A stretch of DNA of 60,275 nucleotides from Anaerolineae bacterium (GCA_019912985.1 JAIOHN010000079.1:1-60275), one strand, 5' to 3'. Positions 30,944 to 52,559 are shown, counted from the first letter of the stretch. Numbers and translations: made by a program. The notes: a model not told the origin generated them from the sequence alone.

Positions 30944-32584
30944 ATGGTGATCCAGTTTCTCATTGACAATCCGCTATTCATGCTGTTTTTAATCGCAGCT
31001 ATTGGCTATCCGTTAGGGCGTATCAAGATTCGCGGAAGCAGCCTGGGCGTCGCAGCCGTACTGTTTGTGGGTCTCGCTATAGGCGCATTAGACCCAAACC
31101 TGAAGCTGCCTGACGTGCTTTACCAGCTTGGTTTGGTCGTGTTCGTCTACACCATTGGCTTGAGCAGTGGGCCGGGGTTTTTTGCCTCACTGCGACGCAA
31201 GGGGTTGCGTGACAACCTCTTCATAGCGGTGATGCTGATGCTGGCGACGGGCCTGACCATCGTCATATATGGTGCGCTTCGCCTGACACCGGCGCTGACA
31301 GCGGGCATGTATGCAGGTAGCCTTACCAATACACCGGCGTTGGCGAATGTGCTGGATTATATTGAAAACTATACGCCTCAAACCGAGATTGACCAGTTGC
31401 TTGTTGAGCCAGTGGTGGGCTATTCACTGACCTATCCCATGGGTGTGATCGGTATGATCCTTGGGATCTCCCTGATGCAGCGGCTCTGGAAGGTGGATTA
31501 CACTCGCGAAGCGCGGAGCCTGCCGGAATCCGAGGCAGGAAAACCGCTGCAAGGCCGTACTGTTCACATTACTGCCCCTGAAGCTGCTCAGGCCACCATC
31601 GAGGAACTGGTTCAGCAACAGGGATGGGATGTGATCTTTGGGCGCCTACAACATCGCGGCCACGTCTCGCTTTCCAATGGTCAGAGCCGTTTCGAGATGG
31701 GAGATTTGGTAAGTGTTATTGGCTCGCCTGAGGAACTTGACGTTGTAACCGCCTATCTGGGCAAAGTGAGCGATGAACAACTTGAATTCGACCGGAGCCT
31801 GCTCGACCACCGGCGTGTCTTCGTCTCCAATCCCAGGGTGGTGGGGCATCGCCTGCGTGACCTCAACCTGCCTCAGCATTTCGGTGCCCTGGTGACTCGC
31901 TTGCGACGTGGTGACGTGGATTTTCTACCCCATGAGGACACGGTGTTACAGCCTGGCGACCGGGTGCGAGTGGTCGCGCCACGCACACATATGGACGCAG
32001 TGAGCGCTTTTTTCGGCGATTCCTATCGTTCTCTAAGCGAAATTGATTTCATGACCTTTAGCCTTGGCCTGGCGCTGGGACTGCTGCTGGGGCTGATCCC
32101 GATCCCGCTGCCGAGCGGTATGACCCTCAGACTTGGATTGGCGGGCGGCCCACTGATCGTCGCCATGGTACTGGGGAGACTGGGACGCACCGGTCCGCTG
32201 GTGTGGAGCCTGCCCTACAGTGCTAACCTTACCTTGCGCCAGGTGGGTTTGATCCTTTTCTTAGCTGGGGTGGGCACGCGCTCCGGCTATGCCTTTGTGA
32301 CCACCCTCACTCAGGGCCAGGGGGCGGCGATTTTCCTGGCCGGCGCATCTATCACTTTTAGCGTCGCCCTGGCGACTCTCTGGGTGGGACATCAATTCCT
32401 CAAAATACCGATGGGCTTGCTGATCGGGATGCTGTCCGGCTTACAGACACAGCCTGCGGTGCTGGGTTTCGCATTGGAACAAGCCGACAATGAATTGCCC
32501 AACATCGGCTACGCCGCTGTCTATCCTACCGCCACGATCGCTAAAATTCTCGTAGCGCAATTACTGGTGGTTGTTTTATGGTGA
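30944..32584 (+). CDS. YidE/YbjL/AspT-family transporter with two internal RCK_C (TrkA-C) domains
   Basis: N- and C-terminal TM bundles flank two RCK_C-like segments (GDLVSVIGSPEELD and LQPGDRVRVVA). Confidence 0.75.
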   Translation: MVIQFLIDNPLFMLFLIAAIGYPLGRIKIRGSSLGVAAVLFVGLAIGALDPNLKLPDVLYQLGLVVFVYTIGLSSGPGFFASLRRKGLRDNLFIAVMLMLATGLTIVIYGALRLTPALTAGMYAGSLTNTPALANVLDYIENYTPQTEIDQLLVEPVVGYSLTYPMGVIGMILGISLMQRLWKVDYTREARSLPESEAGKPLQGRTVHITAPEAAQATIEELVQQQGWDVIFGRLQHRGHVSLSNGQSRFEMGDLVSVIGSPEELDVVTAYLGKVSDEQLEFDRSLLDHRRVFVSNPRVVGHRLRDLNLPQHFGALVTRLRRGDVDFLPHEDTVLQPGDRVRVVAPRTHMDAVSAFFGDSYRSLSEIDFMTFSLGLALGLLLGLIPIPLPSGMTLRLGLAGGPLIVAMVLGRLGRTGPLVWSLPYSANLTLRQVGLILFLAGVGTRSGYAFVTTLTQGQGAAIFLAGASITFSVALATLWVGHQFLKIPMGLLIGMLSGLQTQPAVLGFALEQADNELPNIGYAAVYPTATIAKILVAQLLVVVLW

Positions 32585-32888
32585 AAACGGCGCAATCTTA
32601 CCCGAATATTAGAAACAGTATTCTTTTAGTGGAAAGTGGTGGCAAGTATGAAACGAATTGTACATAAATTGCAGAAGAGTCGTATTTCTCATAATGATGG
32701 AGTTAGTCATATCAAGGCAGGATCACGGGGCTTTTGTTTGATGAAGACGAAACATTATAAGACGAGCAGATACATCAGCGAGGTCTTCCCATACAGATGG
32801 TCTTCCCTGGGCGTGTAATGGTGTTGATGTCTCTACAGTTGGTGTATACATCAGGGAAAAAAACACTAAGTAGAGTAGATATAACCAA

Positions 32889-33554
32889 ATGATGATTTTG
32901 AACTTGCTCGTTGTCGAAGATGAACCCGAATTTGCCGACTATCTGCGACGCGGACTGTCATATGACGGCTATCAGGTTCGGGTTGCCTCCTCCGCTGAAG
33001 CCGGACTGGAAGAGGTTCGTCGAAGTCCACCTGATTTGATTATTTTCGATGTGATGCTGCCTCTTATGGATGGCATTATGGCTTGTCGTTGTCTGCGTGA
33101 ATGGGGATACGCTGGCCCCGTATTGATGCTGACCGCCCGCGATGCGATTGATGATCGTGTGACCGGGTTAGATTCCGGCGCAGATGACTATCTGGCAAAA
33201 CCCTTTGATTTTGATGAACTTTTGGCGCGATTACGGGCGCTTCTGCGCCGCAGGGGTTATGGAACCTCAATTCTCTCCTTTGCTGACGTGGAACTAGATA
33301 CTCGTCTTCGCACAGCCGCACGTCGCGGTTCAACCATCACTCTGAGCCGCACTGAGTATGATTTACTGCTCTTTTTTCTATCTTACCCGGAACAAACGCT
33401 TACCCGTGAAGTCTTGCTTGAAAATATTTGGGGCACCGCGCCGGGATTGAATTCTAATGTGCTCGATATTTATATTTCTCGCCTTCGCCACAAACTCGGA
33501 GAACCGCCGCTTATCCACACCCTCTATGGCATTGGTTATGTGTTAAAAAAATGA
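32889..33554 (+). CDS. OmpR-family response regulator
   Basis: Receiver domain (LVVEDEPEF...DLIIFDVMLP...KPF) plus winged helix (LSRTEYDLLLFFL...IHTLYGIGYVLK). Confidence 0.9.
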   Translation: MMILNLLVVEDEPEFADYLRRGLSYDGYQVRVASSAEAGLEEVRRSPPDLIIFDVMLPLMDGIMACRCLREWGYAGPVLMLTARDAIDDRVTGLDSGADDYLAKPFDFDELLARLRALLRRRGYGTSILSFADVELDTRLRTAARRGSTITLSRTEYDLLLFFLSYPEQTLTREVLLENIWGTAPGLNSNVLDIYISRLRHKLGEPPLIHTLYGIGYVLKK

Positions 33555-34921
33555 TTTCACTGAAGTGGCGACTCACCTTATGGTACGTAGCCTTCACAGT
33601 TTTCGGGCTGTTAGGGTTGATGTCCATTTCTTATTATTTGTTTTCTATATCGCTTCAGAACGAGATTGACCGCACCCTCGCCGAGCGCGCCAATCATGTC
33701 GTTGACGCGCTCGCCATCACCCCGAATCGCCCGATACAGGGCGTCTCTTTGGGAACAACGGATGAGTTCAGCGCGCCAGGGGTCTTCCTGCAAATTCTAA
33801 ACGCCGATGGAGAAGTCGTCGCCCGTTCTTTCAATCTAGGCACACGGCGGCTGCCGCTGCCAACCCTAAGCGAGGTGAAAACGCTCGCCCCTTCGTACTA
33901 TACGCTGCGGATTGACGAACAGCCAGTTCGTCTCTCTTACAAACCGCTGACGCGCGAGGGCAGAATTGTGGGCGTAGTGCAGGTTGGTCAATCGCTCATT
34001 GGTTTGGAGACCACTCTGAGCCAGCTACGCTTGATTTACACCATCGGCGCAGCCGCCGTACTGCTCTTTGGTCTACTCACCGGTTGGGTGGTTGCACATT
34101 TCGGTCTAAAGCCGGTTGTACACCTCACAGCTACTGCACGGGACATCGTTCGCGCTGAAGACCTCGCACGCCGTGTGCCCGCTCCTAGAACAAAAGATGA
34201 AATTGCAGTTTTAGCAGCTACCTTCAACCAGATGTTAGACCGGCTTCAATCGTTGTTTGAGGGGCAGCACCAATTCCTGTCTGAAGTCGCCCACGAGCTG
34301 CGTACTCCGCTGAGTACCATGCTGGGTAATGTCGATCTGATTGTCCATTATGGGGAAGATGCAGAACGGCGTAGCGAGACGATCAGGGCGCTCCAGCGCA
34401 CCGGACGGCACGTCGCTCGACTGTTAGACGATTTGCTGCTTCTGGCCCAAGCCGAGGCTGGATGGCATCTCCAGATGCGCCCTTTTTCGATTGACGACAT
34501 TCTGATTGAAGTTTACGAAGCCTCATTCAACCCTAAGCTCCAACTCCAGACCTGCGAGCCTGCTTACGTGCAAGGCGATCCAGACCGTCTGCGCCAGGTC
34601 CTCATGAACCTGCTTGACAACGCGATGAAATATTCGCCTTCAGAAAGCATCATTGCGCTTGACTTATGGCGGGAGAATGATCGCGTATGGATGCAGGTCA
34701 GAAATGTTGGAGCCAACATTCCACAGGAGGCCCTTTCGCAAGTCTTTGCCCCCTTTTTCCGTCTACAGACACATTCGTGGCAGCCGGGCACCGGGTTAGG
34801 GTTAACGATCGTGCGCTGGATCGTCCAGGAACACGGCGGCGAAATCAGTGTCGAGAGTTCCCTTGAAAACGGGATGACTATCAAATTCTGGCTGCCAGCA
34901 TACGACTTACCCGTCACGTAA
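33551..34921 (+). CDS. sensor histidine kinase (2 TM, HAMP, HisKA, HATPase_c)
   Basis: 4-nt overlap with the regulator gene. H-box FLSEVAHELRTPLS, N-box LLDNAMKYS, G-box GTGLGLTIV. Confidence 0.9.
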   Translation: MISLKWRLTLWYVAFTVFGLLGLMSISYYLFSISLQNEIDRTLAERANHVVDALAITPNRPIQGVSLGTTDEFSAPGVFLQILNADGEVVARSFNLGTRRLPLPTLSEVKTLAPSYYTLRIDEQPVRLSYKPLTREGRIVGVVQVGQSLIGLETTLSQLRLIYTIGAAAVLLFGLLTGWVVAHFGLKPVVHLTATARDIVRAEDLARRVPAPRTKDEIAVLAATFNQMLDRLQSLFEGQHQFLSEVAHELRTPLSTMLGNVDLIVHYGEDAERRSETIRALQRTGRHVARLLDDLLLLAQAEAGWHLQMRPFSIDDILIEVYEASFNPKLQLQTCEPAYVQGDPDRLRQVLMNLLDNAMKYSPSESIIALDLWRENDRVWMQVRNVGANIPQEALSQVFAPFFRLQTHSWQPGTGLGLTIVRWIVQEHGGEISVESSLENGMTIKFWLPAYDLPVT

Positions 34922-34987
34922 TTGAAACTGAGACAGTTGTTCCTTTCTCTGTTCAGGGTAACTGAAATATAACCTTTTCTCATCAAA

Positions 34988-35017
34988 TTGACAGAATTTG
35001 GAGAGAACTTTTTAAAT
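34988..35017 (+). promoter_or_regulatory. sigma70-like promoter candidate (TTGACA, 18 nt, TTAAAT)
   Basis: TTGACA at 34988-34993 and TTAAAT at 35012-35017, about 100 nt upstream of the CDF::HflK gene. Confidence 0.35.
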
Positions 35018-35115
35018 CGGTTTGGTTAGTCTTTATGAGTTTATGGCTTGCATATATTCCGAGGATAACCCAGAACTTCTCACCTTGCTAATGGATTATC
35101 GTGAACAGTTGAATT

Positions 35116-36666
35116 ATGAACCGCAAAGAACGCACCATATTCGTAACGATTATCGTCAATATCCTGCTGATCCTCTTCAAATTCGGGTTAGCGGGCGCTT
35201 CTGGAAGTGAGGCGCTCCAAGCAAGCGCTGTTCATTCGGTCACGGATGCGGCGATTGGCGTATTTGTTCTGCTCGGCCTGTTCATTGGTCGATGGGATGC
35301 CTCGCGTCCAGCGGTCAAGCAGCGCTTTAGCCAGATTGAGAATTGGATCGCTCTGGTTGTGGCAGCAGCCATCTTCTACGTCGCCTACGACATCGTAATC
35401 GAAGTCTTGAGCGGTGAAACGCCCGAACTCCGAAATCTCGGTGTGATCACTATTGCTTCTCTGATCACAGTGGCCGCCGCCTATTTCATCGCACGTTATA
35501 AACAGTATGTCGGTAAGCAGACCAACTCGCCAGCGCTGCTCGCCAGCGGCGCACACTCGCAAATGGACATTTATGCGGCCATTGTGGTGGTGGTCGGACT
35601 GGCGGGGTCGGCGCTAGGGCTGCCCAATCTTGACCGAGCAGCAGCAGCGGTCGTGGTCGTATTCATCGTGTTTTCGGGTTACGAAATTGCTGTTTCTGCT
35701 ATCAGCGCCCTTCGCCGACATGAGGTGTTAGAAATTGATGGCGAACCCGGCCATCAACATGCACCGAGAAAATTGTGGCGATTATTTCTCCCGATTGCAG
35801 GCATATCTCTGGTCATTGTGTATTTGCTCTCCGGGTTATACGTCGTTCAGCCCGGAGAGATTGCCGTTGTCCGTCGTTTTGGGCAAGTCGTCACGCCTGA
35901 TGTTGGACCAGGGCTGCACTACCGATTACCCTGGCCCATAGATCGCGTTGATATCGTGGATGCCGCGTCTATCCGGCGCGCTGAACCCGGGGCGAGCCTG
36001 ATGCTGACTGGCGATCAAAATCTGATCTCAGTGCGCTTCAGCCTACACTATGTTGTGACTGATGCAGCGGCTTTTCTGCTGAATGTTGGCGATCCAGCCC
36101 GACTGGTCACGCAGGCTGGCGAGTCCGCCATGCGCCAGGTGGTTGCCCAGGAAAGTGTGGATTCGTTATTGACGGTAGACAAGGCAGAAATCGAAGAACG
36201 GGTGAACGCATTCGCGCAGTCCACGTTGGACGCTTACAACGCCGGACTACAAGTTGTTGGTATACAACTTCTTGAAAGCAATCCGCCGGCTGAAGTCGCA
36301 GATGCGTTCCGCGACATCGCCAGCGCCCGTGAGGATCAAAATACGTTTATTAACGAGGCTCAGGCTTATGCCAACGAGATCGTTCCGATAGCGCGTGGCG
36401 ATGCTGCGACTACCGTTCAAAACGCGAATGCCTACTACTCTGAAAAAATCGGTCAGGCCAATGGCGATGCGGTGGTGTTCGCCAATCAGCAGGCAGCCTA
36501 CGCCGAGTCGTCGGACATCACCCGTCTACGCATGTATCTCGTTGCGATGGAAAGCGTTCTACCGGGCGTGCGCAAATTTATCCTCGATCCAAGCATCCAG
36601 CTAGAGACAACTGATTTGTGGTTTCAGGGTGGCAGCAGCATTCAATCACTGCCACCGCTGCCGTAA
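35116..36666 (+). CDS. chimeric protein: cation-diffusion-facilitator TM core fused to an HflK-like SPFH domain
   Basis: N-terminal half has six TM segments with both HxxxD site motifs (AVHSVTD, AHSQMD). C-terminal half has a TM helix plus VQPGEIAVVRRFGQV...GLHYRLPWPIDRVDIV and an SPFH/coiled tail. Confidence 0.8.
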   Translation: MNRKERTIFVTIIVNILLILFKFGLAGASGSEALQASAVHSVTDAAIGVFVLLGLFIGRWDASRPAVKQRFSQIENWIALVVAAAIFYVAYDIVIEVLSGETPELRNLGVITIASLITVAAAYFIARYKQYVGKQTNSPALLASGAHSQMDIYAAIVVVVGLAGSALGLPNLDRAAAAVVVVFIVFSGYEIAVSAISALRRHEVLEIDGEPGHQHAPRKLWRLFLPIAGISLVIVYLLSGLYVVQPGEIAVVRRFGQVVTPDVGPGLHYRLPWPIDRVDIVDAASIRRAEPGASLMLTGDQNLISVRFSLHYVVTDAAAFLLNVGDPARLVTQAGESAMRQVVAQESVDSLLTVDKAEIEERVNAFAQSTLDAYNAGLQVVGIQLLESNPPAEVADAFRDIASAREDQNTFINEAQAYANEIVPIARGDAATTVQNANAYYSEKIGQANGDAVVFANQQAAYAESSDITRLRMYLVAMESVLPGVRKFILDPSIQLETTDLWFQGGSSIQSLPPLP

Positions 36667-36681
36667 AAATGGAGTTGCGAT

Positions 36682-37662
36682 ATGAAAATCCTGCGAAATG
36701 TCATCATCGCCGTGATTGCGCTCGGTTTTTTGGCGATCAATCTGGTCTTTTTCCAGGTTGACGCGACCGAGGCGGCGGTTGTGACCCAATTTGGTGAACC
36801 TGTACGCACGATCACCGACCCTGGCTTGTACACTAAGCTCCCAGACCCGCTTCAGAGTGTCGTTCGTATCAACACTCAGCTACAGGTATACAACCTGCCA
36901 CGGACTGAGTTCCTGACCAGCGACCGTAATAACATCGTGCTTGAGGCCTATGCAACCTGGCAGGTCACGGAATCGCTGCTGTTTTTGCGAACTGTACGTG
37001 ATACAGTAAACGCTCAGACTCGACTTGCAGACATCATCAACTCGGAGATCGGCAGCGCGCTCGGTCAGGTTGAGCTACAGCAGTTGGTTTCCACAGATAC
37101 AACCCAGGTCATGCTGTCCGAAACCCTCTCAACGATTACTGAGGAAGCTGCCGCACGTACATCTGATTTCGGTTTCACCGTAACGGATGTACGGCTCCGG
37201 GAACTAACCTTCCCACAGGCAAACCTGACCAGTGTGTTTCAACGCATGAGATCCGAGCGTGAAGCGATTGCTCGGCAGCTTCGTTCCGAAGGGACAGAGC
37301 AAGCAGCGGAAATACGCGCAAATGCAGATGCAGATGCCGCGCAGATTCTCGCCGATGCCAATCAACAGGCGGCAGAGATACGCGGTCAGGCAGACGCAGA
37401 TGCTATTGCGATTTATGCCGCCGCTTTTGGGTTAGACCCCGAATTTTACCAGTTCTCGCGCACATTACAGGCGTATGCAGCGTTTATCGATCAGAACACC
37501 ACCCTGATTTTGCCTTCCGACTCGCCGCTCCTGAATTATCTCAATGCGGCTGGGAGCAGCTTTTCACTGAATCCGGGCGTGGATGACAATCAAGTTGAGC
37601 TCTCGCCTACAGAAGTCGCTCCGGCTGAACCGATGCTGACACCAACACCCCAGGGAGGTTGA
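36682..37662 (+). CDS. HflC-like SPFH/band-7 protein
   Basis: GGAG RBS. N-terminal TM, SPFH core, and an Ala/Gln-rich coiled segment EQAAEIRANADADAAQILADANQQAAEIRGQADADA. Confidence 0.8.
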   Translation: MKILRNVIIAVIALGFLAINLVFFQVDATEAAVVTQFGEPVRTITDPGLYTKLPDPLQSVVRINTQLQVYNLPRTEFLTSDRNNIVLEAYATWQVTESLLFLRTVRDTVNAQTRLADIINSEIGSALGQVELQQLVSTDTTQVMLSETLSTITEEAAARTSDFGFTVTDVRLRELTFPQANLTSVFQRMRSEREAIARQLRSEGTEQAAEIRANADADAAQILADANQQAAEIRGQADADAIAIYAAAFGLDPEFYQFSRTLQAYAAFIDQNTTLILPSDSPLLNYLNAAGSSFSLNPGVDDNQVELSPTEVAPAEPMLTPTPQGG

Positions 37663-37667
37663 ATTCG

Positions 37668-38774
37668 ATGAGTGAGACTCCTCCAACACCACCTGAGCGC
37701 CCATCCCCCAATTGGGGCGATGTGCTGCACAGTGTTGTTCAAGCTCTTGGACGCCTTGCTCGTTTTGTAGCAGGCGATGATGAATCGCCCCTCGCAGACT
37801 TGCAGGCTGCATTTGGCAATCTCAAACCCCATCGTATCCTATTGATGTTGGCGATTTTAGCCGTTCTGGGATACCTGCTGACAGGTATATACGTGGTCGC
37901 GCCGGGGGAAGCGGCGGTAGTACGACGTTTTGGCGCGGTTGTTGAACCCAACGTCGCACCGGGGCTGCACTACCGATTGCCTTGGCCCATTGACCGTGTT
38001 GACATCGTGAACGTCAGTGAGGTGCGCCGTGAGGTGGTCGGTGTCCTCGCTCCTGAAGAAGATCATGTACATCCCGAACCACCTTCAAAATTGCAGGTCT
38101 TATCCGGCGATACCAACGTCATTGATGTCGAGATTATCGTCCAATACCAGGTAGGTGATCCGGCTGCCTATCTTGTCAATGTGGAGTTTGCCCCTTATCG
38201 CCTCGTGCGCGATATCGCGCGTCAGGCGGTAACAATCGTGATGAGTCAACTGCCGGTCGATGCCATTTTGACGACGGAACGCCAAACGCTTCAAAACACT
38301 ATTCGCGCCGAAACGCAGCGGCGCCTGGATGCTTATCAGAGCGGCTTGATTGTTGTAGGGATCAATTTGCAGAAGGCTTTCCCCCCGGACGAGGTAGCGA
38401 ATGCTTTTGTCGATGTGAGCAGCGCACGCGTGGATAGAGAACGCACCATCAACGATGCCAACGGTTACGCGAACAGTCTGCTTCCTCAGACGCGCGGTGA
38501 GGCCCAACAAATACTTGCCAATGCAGCAGCTTATCGTTCAGACATTATCGCACAGGCAAACGGCGAGGCGCAGGCATTCGAGACGATCCTGGCGGAGTAC
38601 CAGACGAATTCCGCAATTTACGGCAAAGACATTACCCACTACCGGCTGTTTTTGGAAACGCTGGAATCGATCCTACCGCGTGCGCAAATTTACGTGGTGA
38701 ATATTCAAAACGGCGAAACGGTGAACCTGCGCTTGCTCGGCAGCGTGTCTCCATCTGAAACACCCGTCCCATGA
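37668..38774 (+). CDS. HflK-like SPFH/band-7 protein
   Basis: GGGAGG RBS. VAPGEAAVVRRFGAVVEPNVAPGLHYRLPWPIDRVDIVNV is paralogous to the C-terminal half of 35116-36666. Confidence 0.8.
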   Translation: MSETPPTPPERPSPNWGDVLHSVVQALGRLARFVAGDDESPLADLQAAFGNLKPHRILLMLAILAVLGYLLTGIYVVAPGEAAVVRRFGAVVEPNVAPGLHYRLPWPIDRVDIVNVSEVRREVVGVLAPEEDHVHPEPPSKLQVLSGDTNVIDVEIIVQYQVGDPAAYLVNVEFAPYRLVRDIARQAVTIVMSQLPVDAILTTERQTLQNTIRAETQRRLDAYQSGLIVVGINLQKAFPPDEVANAFVDVSSARVDRERTINDANGYANSLLPQTRGEAQQILANAAAYRSDIIAQANGEAQAFETILAEYQTNSAIYGKDITHYRLFLETLESILPRAQIYVVNIQNGETVNLRLLGSVSPSETPVP

Positions 38775-38805
38775 AAAATTTCCAGCGGGAGCAAGGTTTT
38801 TAAGC

Positions 38806-40962
38806 ATGAGTGAGGTTTGGAAGCAGGCCTGGGAAGACATTCTCAACTCGATACGAGGTGAAGCAAAATCGGAAGTATCTGTCTTGTCCGCAGTTTCCGA
38901 AGTCGTGTCGGATGGGCAGAAACTGGAAGCGGATGCCGCTGAACACCCCATTGAAGATGCCCCGTTAACGACAGTAGTTGTTTCTCCACAGGAAGCGGAT
39001 TCTGTTGCAGAGACACAGCCGGCACCAGCGCAGTCTATCAGCACAGAGAGGGAACCCGAAGTTCCTCCTACGGAAATCGAGACTGCGCGTCTGTGGCGGC
39101 GAATTCGAGAGAATGCCGTATTGCTAATCGCCATAGTGATCGTGGTGGCAGTGGTATGGATTTCGAGCCGCAGCGGTTCGCTTTCAGGGCCACAACCGCC
39201 CGCGCCCGATGTGATAGCCACATTCAACGGCGGGCAGATCACCATTGCCGACCTTGAAGCACATCTGGCTTTGCTCGCACCGGATGAAATCCAGGAGGGC
39301 ATGAGTTCACCATTTATCTTACAACTGATGGTGCAGCATATGGTGGCCGATGAACTTGCCAGGCAGTGGGCTGACAATCGCCAGCCGGACAACAACGAAA
39401 TGTTCGCTCATACAATGGAGCATATCACAGAAGACATCAACCTAACCTCGTTCGAATCGCAACTGCACGAGAACGCCGTGATGGTTGCCGAGAGTGAAAT
39501 CCAAAACTACTACTATGAAAATAGAGAGCAGTTTGGCGATCAAGCGCTGGACACAGTTCGTGAGACTATTCGTCAAACGTTGGTCGCTGAGCGCGAGCAG
39601 GGATATATTGAGGAATATGTACAGCGGCTGAAAGACAACGCATCGATAGCCCGTAACTTCGAGCTTTTGGATGTGCCTGCCCCGACTGAGGACGATTTAC
39701 GCAGCTACTATGACGAGAACGTAGCCCAATTCACCCTTCCCAAACAGGCAACCGTAGATGAGCTGGAATTTCCAATCGGACAGGATGAAAGCGTCGCGCG
39801 TCGGCAAGCGGAGGATGCCCTGTTGAGCCTTCGTTCCGGCGCGACGTTCGAGCAGGTTGCTCAGGAGAATACAAGCGTCATTCTCACTACAACTCTAAGC
39901 GTTCCAAAGGGTTCAAGGGAACTATCGTGGGAAACCACCGTTTTCGGGCTTACCGAAGGAGAGATTAGCAGTGTTTTCCGCGCTGGAAATTCATTTTATA
40001 TCGTGCGTCTCATAGACTTCGAGGATGAGCGCACCCAGACACTTGAGGAAGCCCGTAACCTGATCATGCCTGTTGTCCAGCAGCAGCAAACCGACATCTG
40101 GTTTCAGGAAAATGCGGATAGAACCCTGCTAACGATTAATGGCCGCAGATACACTGTAGGGCAGTTCTATCGGGAGTATCAAGAACTAGCACCGACAATC
40201 CAGGCACAGTTTTCCGGATCAGAAGGAATGCGTAACCTGGCGGAGAAGTTAATCGAGCGCCTGCTGCTGGTCGAGGACACCTACGATCAGCTTTTAGACT
40301 CGCAGAACCAACCGTTGATTGAGGATGCGCGCCTGGAAGTGCTCAAGCAGATGATGGATCAGGAGGATGTAGACGATCAAATTGAAGTCACGGATGAGGA
40401 AATGCGGCAGTTTTATGACGAGAACCAGGACTTGATGGCTCAACCCCCGGAAGCGCGCATTCGCTACATTCGTATCGGCTTAGGTTCGAGCGAGGACGAA
40501 GCACAGCGGGCGCGAGAACGGGCCGATGAAGCCTACAATCGGCTCGTTCCTGGGGCGCTGCAAAGTGGTGAAGACTTCGCTGCTATCGCCCGGGAATACT
40601 CAGAAGACCCGGAAACGGCAGCCAACGGCGGGGAATTTCCCGGTTGGATTGGGGAAAGCAATGATCTGCTGGCAGAAATCGAACTCCATCCATTTCACGA
40701 ACGGGTTTTGACATTACGGCCTGGTGAAATCAGCCCGATCTTCGAGTTTGGTGATAGTCTGTATATCGTTCAGGTGATTGAGCGCACTGAGCCGGAATCG
40801 TTGACATTCGAGCAAGCACGGCCCTACATTCAGGAAATTCTTTATCAGCAGGAACACGAAGCACTGACAGCTCAGCTAGAGAACACCCTACTCGAACAAG
40901 CCGGTCTCACGATCTATCCAGGTGTCCTAGAGTCCTATTTCAACCAGCGTCCCTCACCCTAA
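38806..40962 (+). CDS. membrane-anchored PpiD/SurA-like peptidyl-prolyl isomerase (parvulin domains)
   Basis: Acidic N-terminal region, one TM (AVLLIAIVIVVAVVWI), SurA-N-like region and PpiC-type segments (..GGEFPGWIGES...GEISPIFEFGDSLYIVQVIER). Confidence 0.75.
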   Translation: MSEVWKQAWEDILNSIRGEAKSEVSVLSAVSEVVSDGQKLEADAAEHPIEDAPLTTVVVSPQEADSVAETQPAPAQSISTEREPEVPPTEIETARLWRRIRENAVLLIAIVIVVAVVWISSRSGSLSGPQPPAPDVIATFNGGQITIADLEAHLALLAPDEIQEGMSSPFILQLMVQHMVADELARQWADNRQPDNNEMFAHTMEHITEDINLTSFESQLHENAVMVAESEIQNYYYENREQFGDQALDTVRETIRQTLVAEREQGYIEEYVQRLKDNASIARNFELLDVPAPTEDDLRSYYDENVAQFTLPKQATVDELEFPIGQDESVARRQAEDALLSLRSGATFEQVAQENTSVILTTTLSVPKGSRELSWETTVFGLTEGEISSVFRAGNSFYIVRLIDFEDERTQTLEEARNLIMPVVQQQQTDIWFQENADRTLLTINGRRYTVGQFYREYQELAPTIQAQFSGSEGMRNLAEKLIERLLLVEDTYDQLLDSQNQPLIEDARLEVLKQMMDQEDVDDQIEVTDEEMRQFYDENQDLMAQPPEARIRYIRIGLGSSEDEAQRARERADEAYNRLVPGALQSGEDFAAIAREYSEDPETAANGGEFPGWIGESNDLLAEIELHPFHERVLTLRPGEISPIFEFGDSLYIVQVIERTEPESLTFEQARPYIQEILYQQEHEALTAQLENTLLEQAGLTIYPGVLESYFNQRPSP

Positions 40963-41256
40963 ACATGGCTAGGATTCACCATCGGGCGCGGATGCAATCC
41001 ACAGATTATTAGGCTCACGACGCTCGTCGAGATCACCGAGCAGATGGCGATGCTTTGCTCGAAGCGGTTTGGACTATTCAGCGGGGATTATCATGAACAG
41101 GCAAGTATCCAAACACTGGTCGTCAAACGCTTCCTCCCTCATCAGCAAACTCAACCTTGTAACATGCATCACGAAACGGATTCATAGCAAAGCCGGCGTC
41201 CCTGAAAGTCAGTAAGCGGAGCCACGCCTGTGTTTGTCACATCGGACTTAGCACAG

Positions 41257-41484
41257 CTAATTACCCATATCAGGCATGTTTGATGGCATAGGTGTTAATG
41301 TTATCTGCATGTCGCTGGGGCGCTCCATGCCTGGCATGTTCATCGATCCATTATCAACGTCAACAACTTGCGTTTGATCGGCGGTATAAATCACCCAGAT
41401 CATATATAGAATGAGTCCCAACGCGAAAATCCAGCCGATTTTGAGACTCTTCTTTCCCCTTGGTCCATAGGTTGGTTGCCCCAT
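41257..41484 (-). CDS. small membrane protein with Met-rich C-terminal tail
   Basis: GAAGGAG RBS. One TM, then NGSMNMPGMERPSDMQITLTPMPSNMPDMGN. Confidence 0.5.
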   Translation of the reverse strand: MGQPTYGPRGKKSLKIGWIFALGLILYMIWVIYTADQTQVVDVDNGSMNMPGMERPSDMQITLTPMPSNMPDMGN

Positions 41485-41756
41485 ATCATTCTCGCTCCTT
41501 CAGCCTTTTAGAACGTTTTGATCTGCTTGGTAAAGCGTTCACACCTTCTGTTTAGCCTTCCTAATCTGCACAGGTTGCCGGTAATTAAGTTCAGATTTGG
41601 GATAAGTGGTGCAAAGTTGAGTAAAGCCGCCGGTGAGCAACGCGCGCTCCCATATTGGGTGGTACACCTTTATGCCGCCAACAAGCCAAGCAAGCTCACC
41701 TTGGATTGGCTTAAGATGTGATCAATTGGATTTAGTGTTCATACCTCAAGCCGTCA

Positions 41757-43511
41757 TCAATCTGGTTTGTCGCGCTCCACAGACACGAACTCAGCGCCAC
41801 TGATCACGTAAATTTCCCCCGCGTTTATCTGATCATTGTTTAAGCCATCTCCCCCCATTCCATTGGGAATGATATCTGGTACCTCGTCTCCATCCACATC
41901 GTAGACTGCCAGGCCATAAGCCATCATATCTTCTGCATCAGCGCCAATAACATAGGATATACGTAGATCTTCCAGATTGGATGGTAAAAGGATGTAACCG
42001 CCAGTATTTGGCAAATCGCCGAATTGACCGAAAATTACTGCGAGCATCCCTGCGTTCTGCCGAACCAGCAAATCGTACCCCACCGGATCATAATTGGGTG
42101 CCCCGTAGAACAAATCATCGATGCCATCACCGTCAATGTCTGCCAGTCGGAGAATGTCACCACCTTTGCTGTCGGGTTGGTCTGGATAGATTACCAATGC
42201 CTGATCCTGCGGTGGATTGGCAAGATCAATCATCCGTCCGGGAAACGGCTGTTTTCCATATATCACCCAGGCTTCACCGGCTGCTTCCATCCAATTGTTG
42301 AGACCAGCAGCAACTAAGGTACCCAGAACAAGGTCGTTCTTACCATCACCGTTCAGATCACCGATAGCGATTTCTTCACCCAGAAGATCGTTGGCATCAG
42401 CCCCGTAGACGACGGCCATTTGCTCGTTAATGGGCACGCCCGAATTGTCCAGCAACGAAGCGAGGTCAATGACTTCGCCTCTCAAACTTGAACGTCCAAA
42501 AATGATAAAAGTGTCTCCGCTGTTGAAACGAGCATTCCCTGGTCCATCGCCACCACCGAAATCCAGACCGCCTAGACCAGCAGAGCCACGCCAGAGCGCT
42601 GCACTGACAATCGCATCGTCATAGCCGTCATTATTGAGATCACCGCCAAGTGTGGTTGAACCCAGAAGATCGTCAGGATCGGCACCAATGATCCGTGTTG
42701 CAGTCGATGGGGGGTAGGCCATGTCAATTGGCGAGACGTAGTCATCCGTTAGATTACTGGAGCCATAAATAATCCATGCTTCGCCAGCGTTGATGCGGGC
42801 ACCAACTTCTCCATCGGCTTGATTCGCGCCAATGAGCAAATCGGCATAGCCATCCCCATCGAAATCCCCGCCATCCACCCAAATTCCAAAGCGATCTTCC
42901 CTGGCAGCACCGTAGAATGTAATGACATTAGCTGATGATGCGAGTAAATCCAGCGTGCTCTGATCAGCGAAATCTGAACTTCCCAAGACCAGGTAAGCGG
43001 CTCCCGCATTGGGCCGGACGCCACTGTGGCCGGCGCTGTTCTGCGCACCGAATAGCAAATCATCGTAGCCATCGTTGTTGAAGTCATCAACATACACTTG
43101 AGTACCAGCCATATCGTCTGCCCGCGCGCCATTTATGGTCAACACGATATGGGAAAGGCTGGTATTTTCCTCTAAAGCGATGCGTCCTCCTATTTGACAC
43201 AGGTTCATAATAATACGTAGATGGCCCGCGTTTGTCCGCAAGCCTTCACTCCCGAACACACTGGCATTTTGTCCGGCAACCGCGATATCACCGCAGCCAT
43301 TCCCATCAAAGTCACCGACAGCTAGGGGTTGTCCGGTTGTTGAGGATTGCGCGGGTGTATCGTAGAAGGTAAACATTCCAGTCTGTTCGGTGTCCTTAAG
43401 GTCCCAGGGCCGTCCACCAGATGGCTCATCCTCTGTCTGAGCACTGGTCCCGAATGTCCCGAAGAGGGCGCCGCAAAGTAACACAAGAATCAATGAATAT
43501 GTCTGCATCAT
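41757..43511 (-). CDS. secreted FG-GAP (integrin-alpha-like) repeat protein
   Basis: Signal peptide. Repeated FG..GD.(N/D)GDG.DD(L/I) units such as GDFDGNGCGDIAV, DFNNDGYDDLLFGA, GDFDGDGYADLLIGA and DLNGDGKNDLVLG. Confidence 0.85.
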   Translation of the reverse strand: MMQTYSLILVLLCGALFGTFGTSAQTEDEPSGGRPWDLKDTEQTGMFTFYDTPAQSSTTGQPLAVGDFDGNGCGDIAVAGQNASVFGSEGLRTNAGHLRIIMNLCQIGGRIALEENTSLSHIVLTINGARADDMAGTQVYVDDFNNDGYDDLLFGAQNSAGHSGVRPNAGAAYLVLGSSDFADQSTLDLLASSANVITFYGAAREDRFGIWVDGGDFDGDGYADLLIGANQADGEVGARINAGEAWIIYGSSNLTDDYVSPIDMAYPPSTATRIIGADPDDLLGSTTLGGDLNNDGYDDAIVSAALWRGSAGLGGLDFGGGDGPGNARFNSGDTFIIFGRSSLRGEVIDLASLLDNSGVPINEQMAVVYGADANDLLGEEIAIGDLNGDGKNDLVLGTLVAAGLNNWMEAAGEAWVIYGKQPFPGRMIDLANPPQDQALVIYPDQPDSKGGDILRLADIDGDGIDDLFYGAPNYDPVGYDLLVRQNAGMLAVIFGQFGDLPNTGGYILLPSNLEDLRISYVIGADAEDMMAYGLAVYDVDGDEVPDIIPNGMGGDGLNNDQINAGEIYVISGAEFVSVERDKPD

Positions 43512-43538: not shown

Positions 43539-44546
43539 TTAAATGTTGATTCGATTGGCGAAGACAGCAATACGCTGTGTATTCACGCGATAGGGATAGC
43601 ATGAGATTAGGGTTGCAGTGGGACCATCACGAGTCTCCATGACGTACACATCACTGGGTTCGACTATTTGCCATCCCTGAATATCATAAGTGAAGGCTTG
43701 GGTCTGAGACTGTATCTGGAATTGATCGCCTGCCTCCAATTGATCCAGGTATCGGAATAGCTCACCATAGATATCATTGTGGGCCGCTAACACAACATTG
43801 CCCACGGGATCTGCAGGCGAAATGCCATTGGGGACTTGTCCAACGCCAAGTTTCAATGACTCCCAGTCAATGCCTTGTACGATAGTGCTATCAATGTTGA
43901 GTTTAGGAACCACCAACCGCAGGGCTGTTTCGTTGGTCACGGGCGGAGGCTGAATGGGCGGTGCGAAAATCTGATCTTGAACCAGGGGTATCAAATTATC
44001 GGGGATTTCGGCGAAGTTAAACTGGCTGCGGTTCTGATCATCCGGTGGTGTATGACCGCCGGGCAAAACGATTTGCTCAATTCGCAGTTGCGGTGTAGGG
44101 GCAATGGTTGGAAGGGCCGCTCGCTGCCAGGCATCTGCGGTGGATTGAGCAGCCGCTGTCTGATCTTCGACACGCTCAACGGAAATTGTAAGTAGAACAC
44201 CCAGGATGACAACCGCCATCACAGCGATAATTTCAACTGGCAGCAAGATGCGATGCAGAATCTCAAGCCACTGATTCTTTGTTCGTATAGTATTGGCAAA
44301 ATGATCTCGGCCTTCAATGAAAAAGTCTGACATATCCGGGTTCCCGTTGGTAACCTTCCCTGACGCATCGTCGAGCGCATGGCTGCCAAAAGGCGTATTG
44401 ATGGATGATAAAGCAACCTTCTCAACCATCGAATTATTGTGTTTATCCCCATAGAGCTGGCCTAAGCGGGCTTCACGACGCTTGATTGCCAGAACACGTT
44501 CTATTTCTTTTATTGATAACTCATCGATGGCGTGTTGGTCAGGCAT
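43539..44546 (-). CDS. sortase-family transpeptidase (membrane anchored, long N-terminal region)
   Basis: VVLAAHNDIYGELF (His), ATLISCYPY (TLxTC-type Cys) and a downstream Arg (NTQRIAVFA). Confidence 0.8.
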   Translation of the reverse strand: MPDQHAIDELSIKEIERVLAIKRREARLGQLYGDKHNNSMVEKVALSSINTPFGSHALDDASGKVTNGNPDMSDFFIEGRDHFANTIRTKNQWLEILHRILLPVEIIAVMAVVILGVLLTISVERVEDQTAAAQSTADAWQRAALPTIAPTPQLRIEQIVLPGGHTPPDDQNRSQFNFAEIPDNLIPLVQDQIFAPPIQPPPVTNETALRLVVPKLNIDSTIVQGIDWESLKLGVGQVPNGISPADPVGNVVLAAHNDIYGELFRYLDQLEAGDQFQIQSQTQAFTYDIQGWQIVEPSDVYVMETRDGPTATLISCYPYRVNTQRIAVFANRINI

Positions 44547-44962: not shown

Positions 44963-46678
44963 CTAAACCTGGCCGCCAAGAGTCTGACGCCCCAGATCAC
45001 TTTCAGGGCTGAATTCATCCGATATGATCTCGACGATGGTGCCTTCATCGGCCCAGTCATATAGCACCTTTGCCTCATCATCGCGTGACATCACACAACC
45101 CAGCGTATAGGGTGTGCCGACGCTGTTGCCGCCCAAGTAAGTGCCATCCGGCAGTAAAACCGCTCCATGAAAACCATTCACGAGGCCGGGCACAACTTCG
45201 TAAATGCCCATAAACCAGTTCATTTCCCACTGTCCGCAACCCGTCTCGCCACAAAGCGTGTAACTGCTGCCATAGGCAACCGGCTCATGGCTGAAAATCT
45301 GGTAAATACCGGGGGATGTAGGCGCAGAGGTGATGCCGGACGAGATGCGCCAGTTGAAGACTTCGACACCGTTTTCGTAGGCGACCATCGACTGTGTATC
45401 CAGATTAACGATGATCCGTTTACTGGCGACCGGATCAAGTGGAACGGTCGCGTCACGCGAGGGGATGCTCAAGGTGTCGCCGGGTGACAACTGGCTCAAG
45501 TCCCGCCCGGGATTGTTTTCTTCGATCAGAAAAAAAGGAAGGCCAGTCTTGCGCGCGATTCCATAGGCCGTATCGCCAGCAGCCACCGTATAGACTGTAG
45601 GGCGATGTCGGATACGAAACTGAACATTACTGCGTCTGCTTCTGAACGCCTCCTGGATTTCTTGCATAACTTTTGCTCTATCGAGGTACAGTTCCTTTTC
45701 TTGCTGATCCCTGGACTCATTTAGTGCGGTATTCAGGGCTTCAAGAAACGGTGCGAAAGTTTCTTCTCGCAAGGTCAGACCATCATGACGCACCTCTAGC
45801 CAGGATGTAAACGTATCACGGTCTGTGCGCCAATCGATGAATTCGTTTGTGAAGGGATCGTAACCCCGCATGGCGAACGGCTGGTTGGCAAGTTGGCGAG
45901 CATCTTCCAGATAGGGGATCGGATCGACCATATCGGGTTCCACCCTGTTGGTTACCAACTGTAGCCTGAGCCGCTGGGCTATTTCAACAGGTCCTTGTGT
46001 CAGAAGCTCCAGTGTCGCACCAACATCCAGCATCCGGCCATCACGTCCCGGTACGCCCACCAGTGCGTCGCCCTCCCATTTATATCCTGCATTGACTGGC
46101 GCGAAGCTCACTTCTTCCGAAATGGTCAGCAAGTACTCCTGAGCAGTCAAGTAATCGACCTCTACAACAGGTGGAACACCATTGCCGAAAGGGATGCCAG
46201 ACAGGCCAATGCCGAGCGCGGATTGGGCGGTTTGGCGCGCATCGAGCGACAGTCCCAATTGACTCGGACTGGCGGTCCATGTGCGATCCTCATCGACCAG
46301 TTGGATGCGCAAATCGTCATACCAGGCGTCGCGCAGAGCGGTTGCCGCTTCATCTACGGTCATGTCACCGATGTAAATGCCCACCACCCAGATATTAGGG
46401 AAAATACGGCCCGCCAGGAGATGGGCGGCGATATACAAGAATAGAGCGGTTACAGGAACAGCCAGTAGGGCTTTAGCGATCGTCGGATTGCGCTGAATAT
46501 ACCACAATCGATCCTGTACAAACCATATGGTTCGCTCAAATTTCGTTATATCCGGCACAGGCCGTCGCTTGACCATCGCTTCACGTTTACGCTCGCGGGC
46601 TATCTGCCGCTGACGGGCGCTACTGACATGATGCCGCCGAGTGACTTGCTCATTCATCTCTTGCTGCCTCCGGTTCAA
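44963..46678 (-). CDS. L,D-transpeptidase (YkuD) with LysM and N-terminal peptidoglycan-binding-like region
   Basis: LysM YTVAAGDTAYGIARKTGLPFFLIEENNPG...LSPGDTLSIP. YkuD IIVNLDTQSMVAYENG...GFHGAV...TLGCVMS. Confidence 0.85.
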   Translation of the reverse strand: MNRRQQEMNEQVTRRHHVSSARQRQIARERKREAMVKRRPVPDITKFERTIWFVQDRLWYIQRNPTIAKALLAVPVTALFLYIAAHLLAGRIFPNIWVVGIYIGDMTVDEAATALRDAWYDDLRIQLVDEDRTWTASPSQLGLSLDARQTAQSALGIGLSGIPFGNGVPPVVEVDYLTAQEYLLTISEEVSFAPVNAGYKWEGDALVGVPGRDGRMLDVGATLELLTQGPVEIAQRLRLQLVTNRVEPDMVDPIPYLEDARQLANQPFAMRGYDPFTNEFIDWRTDRDTFTSWLEVRHDGLTLREETFAPFLEALNTALNESRDQQEKELYLDRAKVMQEIQEAFRSRRSNVQFRIRHRPTVYTVAAGDTAYGIARKTGLPFFLIEENNPGRDLSQLSPGDTLSIPSRDATVPLDPVASKRIIVNLDTQSMVAYENGVEVFNWRISSGITSAPTSPGIYQIFSHEPVAYGSSYTLCGETGCGQWEMNWFMGIYEVVPGLVNGFHGAVLLPDGTYLGGNSVGTPYTLGCVMSRDDEAKVLYDWADEGTIVEIISDEFSPESDLGRQTLGGQV

Positions 46679-47184: not shown

Positions 47185-48042
47185 TTATGCTTCGTGCGCA
47201 GTCACATCAACGAAATCGCCGTGCCAGTGATGAAGCCAGACCTGTTCATTGTAGCCGTTTACGCTCAGCATTCCAATGATTTCGCCATCTTGCAGGACGT
47301 GAAGGGTGTAGTAGCCGTAAAAGGCATCCGCTTCGTCACTGGCCTGAGTTCCTGGAAGAACCTCATCCAGATAAAGTTGGGCTAGTTCGGTCGCCTGTTC
47401 GGACGATACCGGCATGTCATCACCACTGTCCGTTGGCCGGAACAAACCCATGCCGCGTGTCATCATACCATAACGCAGATTCCACATCATGTTAGGACCC
47501 GGTTCGCCGACAACGACGCCGGTCTGGGGATCGATGAGGAACTCGAACGCACCTTGCCCGGTCTCAGCCTCACGTGCCTGAGCATAGAAATGGTTGCTGA
47601 ACTGCATGACCTCTGCCAGTTCCAGGGGTTGCTCGCTCTCCCAGGTGCCGATATACGCCTGAGCCACCCCAACAGCTTCTTCCAGTGTCAGGGCATCACC
47701 TGCCGGTGCCAGGTCCGAGGGCGGAGTCCAGGCACCCATCATGCCGGTTCCAGGCCCAAAGCGCATAGTCGATTGATCGAAGCCCATCATGTTGTGCATC
47801 ATCATGCCATTCATGCGGCCCATCATCCCGCCCATCATGCCCATACCAAACATCCCCTGTTGAGCACAGGCTTCTGACAAATTAAGATCGCGCGTGCCTC
47901 GGCCCATCATGCCACCGAACATCTCATCGAAGCCACAGGGTGGGTTATCCGGTCCCTGAGCAGAGGCTGCCAGGACCCCCGATATCAGCACAGTGGCTAA
48001 GATCACGATGACCACAAGCGTGCTTTTGGACAGTTGCTTCAT
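47185..48042 (-). CDS. secreted Met/Gly-rich protein with PepSY-like domains
   Basis: Signal peptide. MFGGMMGRG...GMFGMGMMGGMMGRMNGMMMHNMMGF...GTGMMG tract. PepSY-like LTLEEAVGVAQAYIG... and FYGYYTLHVLQDGEIIGMLSVNGY. Confidence 0.75.
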   Translation of the reverse strand: MKQLSKSTLVVIVILATVLISGVLAASAQGPDNPPCGFDEMFGGMMGRGTRDLNLSEACAQQGMFGMGMMGGMMGRMNGMMMHNMMGFDQSTMRFGPGTGMMGAWTPPSDLAPAGDALTLEEAVGVAQAYIGTWESEQPLELAEVMQFSNHFYAQAREAETGQGAFEFLIDPQTGVVVGEPGPNMMWNLRYGMMTRGMGLFRPTDSGDDMPVSSEQATELAQLYLDEVLPGTQASDEADAFYGYYTLHVLQDGEIIGMLSVNGYNEQVWLHHWHGDFVDVTAHEA

Positions 48043-48269
48043 TGGTTTTTCTCCTTCAAGTTATCCAGGATCTTGTAATACTCATCGCTCGAGATTTCAC
48101 CACTTGCGTAGCGAGCTTTAGCGATGTCCTTCGGCGAACGCGGTTCGGAACTGATTTGCTGGTTCTGAGCGAACAGGGTTCGCAGGAACCAGACAGCCAG
48201 CACGATAATGGCAATCCAGAACACGATCATCCAGAAACCACCTCCCCACATATCAAATCCGTACATCAT
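48039..48269 (-). CDS. SHOCT-domain membrane protein
   Basis: TM helix plus C-terminal AKARYASGEISSDEYYKILDNLK. 4-nt overlap with the downstream gene. Confidence 0.75.
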   Translation of the reverse strand: MMYGFDMWGGGFWMIVFWIAIIVLAVWFLRTLFAQNQQISSEPRSPKDIAKARYASGEISSDEYYKILDNLKEKNQ

Positions 48270-52545: not shown

Positions 52546-52559
52546 ATAAACCTCCTGGG

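Follow-up and report, generated by a model that had tools for sequence, protein, structure and literature searches.

In a 60,275 nt stretch of Anaerolineae bacterium DNA (GCA_019912985.1 JAIOHN010000079.1:1-60275; here the window, from whose first letter all coordinates are counted) we find a gene that joins a CDF (cation diffusion facilitator) transporter to an HflK-type SPFH domain in one polypeptide. Judging from its recurrence in other genomes, the stretch 35116-40962 is a conserved four-gene module, in which this fusion gene is followed by the genes of an HflC paralogue, of a second, stand-alone HflK paralogue (HflK2) and of a membrane-anchored protein with parvulin domains. Our interpretation, which we hold with modest confidence, is that the module encodes a stress-regulated SPFH assembly with a built-in exporter of Zn-type ions and a tethered chaperone. 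The initial annotation of the window had predicted six open reading frames (ORFs) between 32889 and 40962, and all of them are found at the coordinates it gave; they are listed here with a conserved upstream block and with the protein regions on which the argument rests (aa, amino acids; TM, transmembrane; CTD, C-terminal domain).

32889..33554, + strand: OmpR-family response regulator (Pfam Response_reg and Trans_reg_C)
33551..34921, + strand: sensor histidine kinase with two TM helices, an extracytoplasmic sensor domain, HAMP, HisKA and HATPase_c (Pfam)
34977..35017, + strand: promoter/operator-like conserved block TTCTCATCAAATTGACAGAA, which includes the -35 element TTGACA (34988-34993)
35116..36666, + strand: CDF::HflK fusion protein, 516 aa (Pfam, NCBIfam, AlphaFold2 (AF2), Foldseek)
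35116..35718, + strand: six-TM CDF transport domain without CTD, aa 1-201 of the fusion (PF01545, YiiP profile match, Foldseek)
35719..35772, + strand: His-rich cytoplasmic linker, aa 202-219, with G-H213-Q-H215 (AF2 disorder, HxH conservation)
35764..35829, + strand: seventh TM helix (TM7), aa 217-238, counterpart of the one TM helix in HflK (AF2, E. coli HflK alignment)
35836..36558, + strand: HflK-type extracytoplasmic SPFH domain and coiled-coil helices, aa 241-481 (TIGR01933, Foldseek)
36682..37662, + strand: HflC paralogue, 326 aa (TIGR01932, E. coli HflC alignment)
37659..38774, + strand: HflK2, stand-alone HflK paralogue, 371 aa from TTG 37659 (TIGR01933)
38031..38090, + strand: HflK2-specific insertion loop E-VVGVLA-PEEDHVHPEPP-SK, aa 125-144 (E. 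coli HflK alignment)
38806..40962, + strand: membrane-anchored double-parvulin chaperone-like protein, 718 aa (Pfam Rotamase_2, Rotamase_3 and Rotamase)

The first half of the fusion had been described as a complete six-TM CDF core, and profile and structure searches both agree with this description. Cation_efflux (Pfam PF01545) covers aa 8-199 over nearly the full length of the model (positions 1-197/198, E 5.6e-25), and the NCBIfam CDF model TIGR01297 gives 82.7 bits against a cutoff of 82.35. An AF2 model of aa 1-212 (predicted template modelling score, pTM, 0.70) reaches a Foldseek TM-score of up to 0.75 against YiiP, and its top 41 matches in the PDB are CDF/ZnT transporters without exception. 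This fold match comes from the separate model of the CDF half and not from the full-length model, for which the 50 Foldseek matches listed are SPFH or vault proteins and none is a CDF. The HxxxD motifs of TM2 (HSVTD; H40 and D44) and TM5 (HSQMD; H147 and D151), reported as intact from the start, form a site A whose four residues are in exact register with D47, D51, H155 and D159 of Shewanella YiiP (profile alignment, E 1.5e-11), so that both motifs would belong to a real metal site, the one used by YiiP for transport.

Conservation at these positions is nearly complete. Of 50 close homologues, 49 have H40, all 50 have D44 and H147, and 48 have D151; the quartet HDHD is kept by 60 of 72 diverse 50%-identity representatives and is invariant across a 24-sequence set extending down to 36% identity. 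Orthologues are also more alike in their CDF half than in their SPFH half (93 vs 84%, 87 vs 76% and 65 vs 54% identity). On this comparative evidence the transport site is under purifying selection, and the CDF half is predicted still to be a transporter, for which the support is indirect but consistent. As to the ion, HD-HD is the quartet of Zn-transporting ZnTs and DD-HD that of YiiP (PMC8341793), and the swap of the first His for Asn moves selectivity to Mn. The usual C-terminal regulatory domain had been claimed to be replaced by an extra TM helix and an HflK-like SPFH domain, and so it is: Pfam gives no ZT_dimer or other CTD match in the fusion protein, the gap between TM6 and TM7 consists of an 18-residue linker alone, and TM7 and a Band_7 domain follow. 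CDFs without a CTD are a recognised class (PMC8341793), so the missing domain is compatible with membership in the family.

In the second half of the fusion, Band_7 (Pfam) spans aa 243-418 (E 1.4e-20) and the NCBIfam hflK model TIGR01933 scores 215 bits against its equivalog cutoff of 159. Residues 219-492 are collinear with residues 75-345 of E. coli HflK, TM7 corresponding approximately to HflK residues 79 to 100. The AF2 model of the full-length protein (mean predicted local distance difference test score, pLDDT, 75) consists of six long helices, a disordered linker at aa 202-216, TM7 at aa 217-238, an alpha/beta SPFH domain and then a 70-residue coiled-coil helix, and its best Foldseek matches are E. 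coli HflK chains from HflK/C-FtsH structures (9cz2, 7vhq, 7wi3). The pLDDT of the linker falls below 50 at aa 205-217; its HxH motif is nevertheless present in 42 of 50 close homologues of the fusion, and is reminiscent of the His-rich cytoplasmic loops in other CDFs. Since the N-terminus is basic, the six helices return the chain to the inside (where Arg and Lys residues border the linker) and TM7 is the HflK anchor helix, the SPFH domain is expected outside the cytoplasm. Its proposed paralogy with the stand-alone HflK two genes downstream is borne out by 44% identity between the SPFH half and HflK2 (E 2e-75).

The same fusion is widespread. A word-indexed protein search, with clusters drawn from NCBI, JGI, ENA and Logan assemblies, returned more than 120 protein clusters (90% identity) that match over their full length with 54-92% identity and carry both Pfam domains; query coverage is 97-100% in the clusters listed and 99-100% in 118 of 120. 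When 1.84 billion representatives at 50% identity were searched exhaustively, 80 of the best 150 matches had both domains, and a scan of genomes at species level shows the fusion in isolates and in metagenome-assembled genomes alike. The hosts belong to the Chloroflexota, Alphaproteobacteria, Negativicutes, Hydrogenedentota, Desulfobacterota and Lentisphaerae. Cultured carriers include Aminobacter aganoensis DSM 7051, Chelativorans multitrophicus DSM 9103, Aquibium oceanicum B7, Anaerospora hongkongensis DSM 15969 and Rhizobium metallidurans DSM 26575, the last perhaps metal-tolerant, to go by its species name. The window comes nearest to uncultured Anaerolineaceae (88% identity). One variant, in locus L058 (8001-10400; P0283/P0137, 799 aa), has about 275 extra N-terminal residues ahead of the CDF domain. 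In public databases the fusion goes under the name 'FtsH protease activity modulator HflK', and in the literature (HflK, SPFH or Band 7 with CDF, copper or PpiD) no description of a CDF-SPFH architecture was found, in keeping with the initial annotation, which knew of no characterised fusion of this kind.

This distribution also disposes of the trivial explanation, in which a frameshift or a chimeric contig would have made one gene out of two ordinary ones. The verdict rests on homologues: an uninterrupted ORF of about 516 aa, collinear with that of the window, recurs in more than 120 independent clusters, in isolate genomes and in a finished plasmid, by which a frameshift or a chimera is excluded; we give an artefact practically no credence and reject it.

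The two genes that follow encode further SPFH proteins. That an HflC-like gene lies between the fusion and HflK2 holds here and in all cassette loci: its product scores 184 bits with TIGR01932 (cutoff 134) and is collinear with residues 2-329 of the 334 of E. coli HflC. HflK2 scores 219 bits with TIGR01933 (cutoff 159), and its aa 59-357 align with residues 79-353 of E. coli HflK; as a mechanically defined ORF it starts at TTG 37659 (371 aa, 4-nt overlap with the HflC stop), and in the public call for this sequence (P0290) at ATG 37668 (368 aa). It has an insertion of 16-17 residues with the consensus P-E-E-G/D-H-x-H-P-E-P-P, whose H-x-H is shared by 118 of 120 homologues and which, by alignment, is missing from the SPFH domain of the fusion and from canonical HflKs. 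Conversely, the motif GPPDL-D/E-E...RK of the canonical HflK N-terminal tail does not occur in HflK2, and in the fusion this tail is replaced by the CDF domain; instead, HflK2 has a conserved cytoplasmic juxtamembrane motif of its own, GDGESPLxDLRAAFGHLxPRR (37773-37835, aa 39-59). By these sequence features HflK2 is not a canonical HflK.

The insertion begins right after the HflK2 residues aligned to R141 and E142 of E. coli HflK, which, with R185, mediate contact with the periplasmic domain of the FtsH enclosed in the cage (PMC13220708). This set of three was used here for the FtsH contact; an Arg191 quoted in another paper did not match the alignment register. Their equivalents are R123, R124 and the R of 'lvRdiar' in HflK2, and R287, R288 and T332 in the fusion. 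From its position after the R141/E142 equivalents, the loop is predicted to be turned towards the enclosed space, at the level of the membrane-proximal SPFH1 ring; it would either bind metal or be a docking site in remodelled form.

These residues bear directly on an alternative in which the module is a metal-gated modulator of FtsH: an HflK/C cage would surround the protease, the CDF domain would be chiefly a metal-sensing or metal-coupled element whose occupancy or conformational cycle alters how the cage opens, and with it the proteolysis of membrane proteins by FtsH during metal stress, and export would be secondary or absent. We regard this as the main rival, though an unlikely one. All three SPFH proteins exceed the HflK/HflC equivalog cutoffs, the R141 equivalent is kept in both HflK paralogues and that of R185 in HflK2, and the conformational plasticity of HflK/C governs stress adaptation in E. 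coli (PMC13220708). Nor is the missing protease a counter-argument. The absence of an adjacent ftsH, pointed out from the beginning, is found again in a Walker A and HExGH motif scan of 59 sequences (the window and about 0.9 Mb of related loci), but is uninformative, because ftsH is likewise unlinked to hflKC in E. coli. However, a full, conserved transport site and the six-helix fold exceed what a sensor needs, and the contact loop of HflK2 is remodelled by 16-17 residues, with E142 replaced and R185 exchanged for Thr in the fusion. In addition, twelve six-TM domains per ring would be expected to crowd the FtsH space, and the cassette of the Alphaproteobacteria is an extra set of accessory nature, borne on a plasmid, canonical hflKC being expected elsewhere in the carrier genomes.

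The three SPFH genes seem to have evolved together. In every locus long enough to tell, the order is fusion, HflC and HflK2. The parvulin gene adjoins them in 32 of 36 loci, these and the context counts below being based on BLAST against annotated representatives within ~7 kb of the cassette; Pfam adds two of the remaining four (L046 and L057). In the window's subfamily it accompanies the core, standing 3′ of it in Chloroflexota and Alphaproteobacteria and 5′ in Negativicutes, Desulforhopalus and L058. Since two remote loci (L055 and L056) carry only the three SPFH genes, these would be the core of the module. Neighbour-joining trees of the fusion, HflC and HflK2 have congruent internal topologies, which suggests that the three co-diverged as a set. 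In all three trees the alphaproteobacterial copies nest inside Chloroflexota diversity, and one cassette copy lies on the finished MOBP/MPF_T conjugative plasmid of Aquibium oceanicum (NZ_CP018172.1, 16552-22382; L054), so that horizontal spread is indicated.

Such constancy is hard to reconcile with a tether devoid of mechanistic meaning, that is, with a stand-alone CTD-less CDF gene joined by chance to the first gene of an hflK-hflC-hflK operon, whose CDF would export metal by itself while the SPFH part did the usual HflK/C housekeeping; we consider this improbable. Neighbouring genes often fuse, the AF2 model shows a disordered linker and CDFs lacking a CTD are known (PMC8341793), all of which would suit a chance event; against this, the fusion is kept in six phyla or more and in no fewer than 80 clusters (50% identity), no split version was seen, HflK2 and HflC are its constant and co-diverging companions, and both the linker and HflK2, itself without the canonical N-terminal tail, bear conserved His motifs.

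The last protein of the module was described initially as a membrane-anchored parvulin with an acidic N-terminus, and its layout fits: a motif at aa 1-18 and an acidic linker are followed by a TM helix at aa ~104-121 and a PPAPD motif, the N-terminal tail having 21 D+E against 9 K+R. Pfam matches Rotamase_2 (E 3.7e-36, in two stretches), Rotamase_3 and Rotamase. Parvulin domain 1 occupies aa 293-418; parvulin domain 2 is part of a PrsA/HP0175-like module that extends over aa ~440-700; sequence matches in the PDB are HP0175, PrsA, Cbf2 and SurA, the C-terminal module being like that of the HP0175, PrsA and PEB4 foldases. In this module the His of RHILV in HP0175, an active enzyme, is replaced by Y554 (Tyr in 23 of 25 orthologues) and that of YHII by Y653 (24 of 25), and in domain 1 the catalytic His positions are taken by D318 and Y398. 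As the catalytic His pair is lost in both domains, the protein is more likely a chaperone of the holdase type than an isomerase. Neither is it a PpiD orthologue, since it scores 72 bits with the PpiD equivalog NF008054, whose cutoff is 493.

Its N-terminal motif (aa 1-18, 38806-38859; M-[AS]-E-G-W-K-Q-[IV]-W-x-D-I-x-N-x-[IL]-R-G) is common to the Chloroflexota and Alphaproteobacteria copies, and has the look of a docking peptide in the cytoplasm or of an amphipathic helix; a suspected likeness to the canonical HflK N-terminal motif is too weak for us to claim an equivalence. The PPAPD motif (aa 131-135), just past the TM helix, is conserved, and the acidic linker is variable. The Desulfobacterota and L058 copies have no N-terminal tail.

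Upstream of the fusion gene stands a two-component system, whose kinase gene overlaps that of the response regulator by 4 nt. The regulator is best matched in NCBIfam by cztR/silR/copR (198 bits, cutoff 279; families TIGR01386/TIGR01387) and the kinase by cztS/silS/copS (197 bits, cutoff 293), by which the latter is not a confident member of the heavy-metal subfamily. Orthologues of the regulator, with 55-82% identity, stand upstream of the cassette in most Anaerolineae loci, and the kinase is likewise conserved. All six genes had been proposed to form one operon. What is conserved as a unit is the four-gene cassette, to which the two-component system is a frequent but not a constant neighbour; a single six-gene operon that includes this system is not established, because a 194-nt spacer with its own conserved promoter/operator-like block precedes the fusion gene. 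The interval from the kinase to the fusion holds no terminator-like site, so transcriptional read-through is possible. The block itself (34977-35017) occurs once in the window; the TCTCAT core of TTCTCATCAAATTGACAGAA is invariant in six Anaerolineae loci whose spacers are otherwise divergent, and several loci have a second TTTCTCA-like copy ~32 nt downstream of it. A sigma70-like promoter had been suggested at 34988-35017, for which the conservation alone speaks. Its -35 hexamer (TTGACA, 34988-34993) is perfect, but its -10 element is weak, and for this reason it is not called by a consensus promoter/terminator scan, in which sites are no commoner than in shuffled sequence. Rfam finds no RNA element in 32000-42000.

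The surroundings of the cassette in other genomes point towards metal and envelope stress. Response-regulator genes are found near it in 25 of the 36 loci and histidine-kinase genes in 24. Metal homeostasis is represented by one or more families (SCO1/SenC, PCu(A)C, CopD, P1B-ATPase, MerR-type, Nramp, DUF305 or DUF3105) in 27/36, envelope quality control or wall remodelling by one or more (HtrA, DsbA/thioredoxin, CcdA, YkuD or M23) in 15/36, and one or the other function in 30/36; none of the metal families was found near canonical hflKC in four control loci, which make a crude control. On the Aquibium plasmid a two-component system borders the cassette on one side and a ZntA-like P-type ATPase on the other; the surroundings, with genes for PCu(A)C, SCO, DsbB, thioredoxin, CopC/CopD, Nramp and MerR, are a Cu/Zn/Cd island. 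In L058 the neighbours are two CsoR-type repressor genes, a CopA-type ATPase, a YHS protein and Ccm genes; in Desulforhopalus they are HtrA, FKBP, DsbA, ResB and M23. The comparison of these loci suggests transfer of the cassette between phyla together with metal-resistance islands.

In many of the Anaerolineae loci (L010-L014, L017-L023) a protease of the HtrA/DegP type (Trypsin_2 and PDZ) stands between the two-component system and the cassette, an arrangement that suggests a shared regulon. The same interval in Anaerolineae often holds an M23-LysM peptidase or a double zinc-ribbon protein.

In the window itself, metal and redox genes lie 6-20 kb 3′ of the cassette on the opposite strand. 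They form a copper/thiol-redox island (47185-60273, minus strand), families of which also flank the cassette in other genomes; its members, and the genes between it and the cassette, are:

58633-60273, - strand: CopA-type P1B-ATPase, cut by the window end
56879-57616, - strand: LuxR-type regulator
55824-56882, - strand: HisKA_3-type histidine kinase with a C-terminal YHS domain
53959-54612 and 51970-52626, - strand: two ResA/TlpA-like oxidoreductases
53348-53944, - strand: DUF3105
52560-53351, - strand: CcdA/DsbD_TM
50822-51922, - strand: YkuD transpeptidase
49002-50800, - strand: second OmpR-type two-component system
44963-46678, - strand: YkuD L,D-transpeptidase with PG_binding_4 and LysM
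43539-44546, - strand: sortase
41757-43511, - strand: FG-GAP repeat protein

The kinase with YHS, a small metal-binding domain, forms a pair with the LuxR-type regulator and may sense copper in the cytoplasm. A 75-aa ORF (41257-41484, minus strand) that converges on the cassette's end has one TM helix and a Met-rich tail (MNMPGM...MPSNMPDM), which recalls Met motifs that bind Cu(I); it has no counterpart in the related loci and may not be a gene. Farther away, at 20863-23772, a 969-aa ORF combines an NAD-dependent epimerase/dehydratase with SPW repeats and a VKOR (DsbB-like) domain.

Returning to the exporter-scaffold interpretation, the fusion protein would start in the cytoplasm, cross the membrane six times as a CDF without a CTD, continue through the His-rich linker and the anchor helix and expose its SPFH domain outside, where with HflC and HflK2 it would assemble into a ring or cage like that of E. 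coli HflK/C. The CDF domains would take divalent metal from the cytoplasm, probably recruited with the aid of the His-rich linker, and release it at the membrane patch delimited by the scaffold; the ion is probably Zn2+-like and is probably exchanged against protons. The acidic H-x-H loop of HflK2 would project into the enclosed space, and the degenerate double-parvulin chaperone would handle exported or membrane proteins at the same site. The OmpR-type system probably activates the module through the conserved operator that overlaps the -35 element, and the whole would be part of a stress response to copper or heavy metals and to disturbed envelope proteostasis. The initial annotation had likewise placed a tethered exporter in an SPFH assembly beside a folding factor. 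Conservation across phyla, co-divergence and selection on site A fit this picture; cage formation and transport, together with the identity and direction of the ion, regulation by the two-component system, the clients of the chaperone and any part played by FtsH, we infer from sequences and models.

Several observations pull the other way. CDFs usually act as dimers stabilised by the very domain that is missing from the fusion, and the full-length AF2 model has a pTM of 0.46, so that the relative placement of the domains is not fixed. Selectivity is not determined by site A alone (PMC8341793), and the flanking islands are chiefly copper-oriented, whereas the HD-HD site suggests Zn-type ions. 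The two-component system of the window scores under the cutoffs of the heavy-metal CusRS/CopRS/CzcRS families, its kinase has a sensor domain without an obvious metal-binding motif, and it is absent from Kouleothrix, L005, L040 and L043, and replaced in Alphaproteobacteria by an unrelated EnvZ/CpxA-like pair. The remote members L055 and L056 have neither the parvulin gene nor a metal context, and the context statistic rests on four control loci and on 36 loci of which several are close kin.

A bolder possibility, to which we attach a low probability, is a dome, independent of FtsH, which the three SPFH paralogues would build on the membrane's outer side and which would serve as a secluded chamber for metalation and folding. 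The CDF domains would fill its lumen with a Zn-type ion, which the HflK2 loops would hold or relay, and the inactive parvulin would keep newly exported proteins there to gain the right metal, shielded from the copper that would otherwise out-compete it. If true, this would explain why the cassette keeps the company of copper and heavy-metal islands and of envelope quality-control genes, and would be the first cargo and purpose assigned to a bacterial SPFH cage besides FtsH.

SPFH proteins (HflK/C, stomatin, prohibitin, flotillin, erlin) have lately been shown to form large membrane cages, and the fusion would offer a natural, covalent pair of SPFH scaffold and client, a sort of 'Rosetta stone' kept across phyla and on a plasmid. 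It would also be a natural example of a CDF that works, or is regulated, without a CTD. The cassette as a whole is a candidate for a new part of bacterial resistance islands against metals and envelope stress, so far masked by the name HflK in annotations, and could be studied in cultured carriers (Aminobacter, Rhizobium metallidurans, Chelativorans, Nitratireductor, Aquibium and Anaerospora).

Compared with known systems, the module would work as HflK/C and a CDF exporter combined. With the HflK/HflC-FtsH complex of E. coli (7WI3, 7VHP, 9CZ2, 9PAW) it shares adjacent genes of the hflK and hflC types, an anchor helix with its N-terminus inside, the SPFH domain and the coiled coil. It differs in having three SPFH genes and not two, in the cytoplasmic N-terminal tail of one HflK being a whole CDF transporter, in the lack of the GPPDL-D/E-E motif and the gain of an acidic H-x-H insertion in the FtsH-contact loop of the other, and in the dedicated parvulin chaperone gene attached. 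With the CDF antiporters (YiiP/FieF, CzcD/ZitB, ZnT/SLC30) the fusion shares the six-helix fold and site A on TM2 and TM5; unlike them it has no metallochaperone-like CTD, TM6 leading through the linker to a seventh helix and the SPFH domain. Its nearest NCBIfam CDF models are MamB, Cdf31 and MamM, but every CDF equivalog score is far below its cutoff, and it is thus not an orthologue of any named CDF.

Non-covalent pairs of an SPFH oligomer with a polytopic protein or with a partner encoded next to it are known in stomatin, which pairs with channels and transporters such as aquaporin-1 (9ZD2), and in the SPFH-NfeD pair QmcA-YbbJ (8Z5G), both entries being among the Foldseek matches of the fusion model; in the cassette, however, the client is covalently fused, and the scaffold is of the HflK/C type, heteromeric and made of three paralogues. 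The parvulin protein resembles PpiD (which acts with YfgM and SecYEG), SurA, PrsA, PEB4 and HP0175 in its N-terminal anchor and extracytoplasmic parvulin module. The parvulin domain of PpiD is likewise inactive, but the cassette protein differs from PpiD in its two parvulin modules, its cytoplasmic tail of ~100 residues and its linkage to SPFH and not to sec genes. The likeness to Cpx of E. coli and CssRS of Bacillus, whose regulons combine the same kinds of genes, is one of gene content alone, i.e., an OmpR-type system near HtrA/DegP, DsbA-like proteins, a parvulin, L,D-transpeptidases and copper genes; the kinases and regulators near the cassette are not orthologues of CpxAR, all scores being below cutoff. 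On sequence grounds, then, the parts of the cassette belong to the HflK, HflC, CDF and parvulin families, each departing from its family in defining features.

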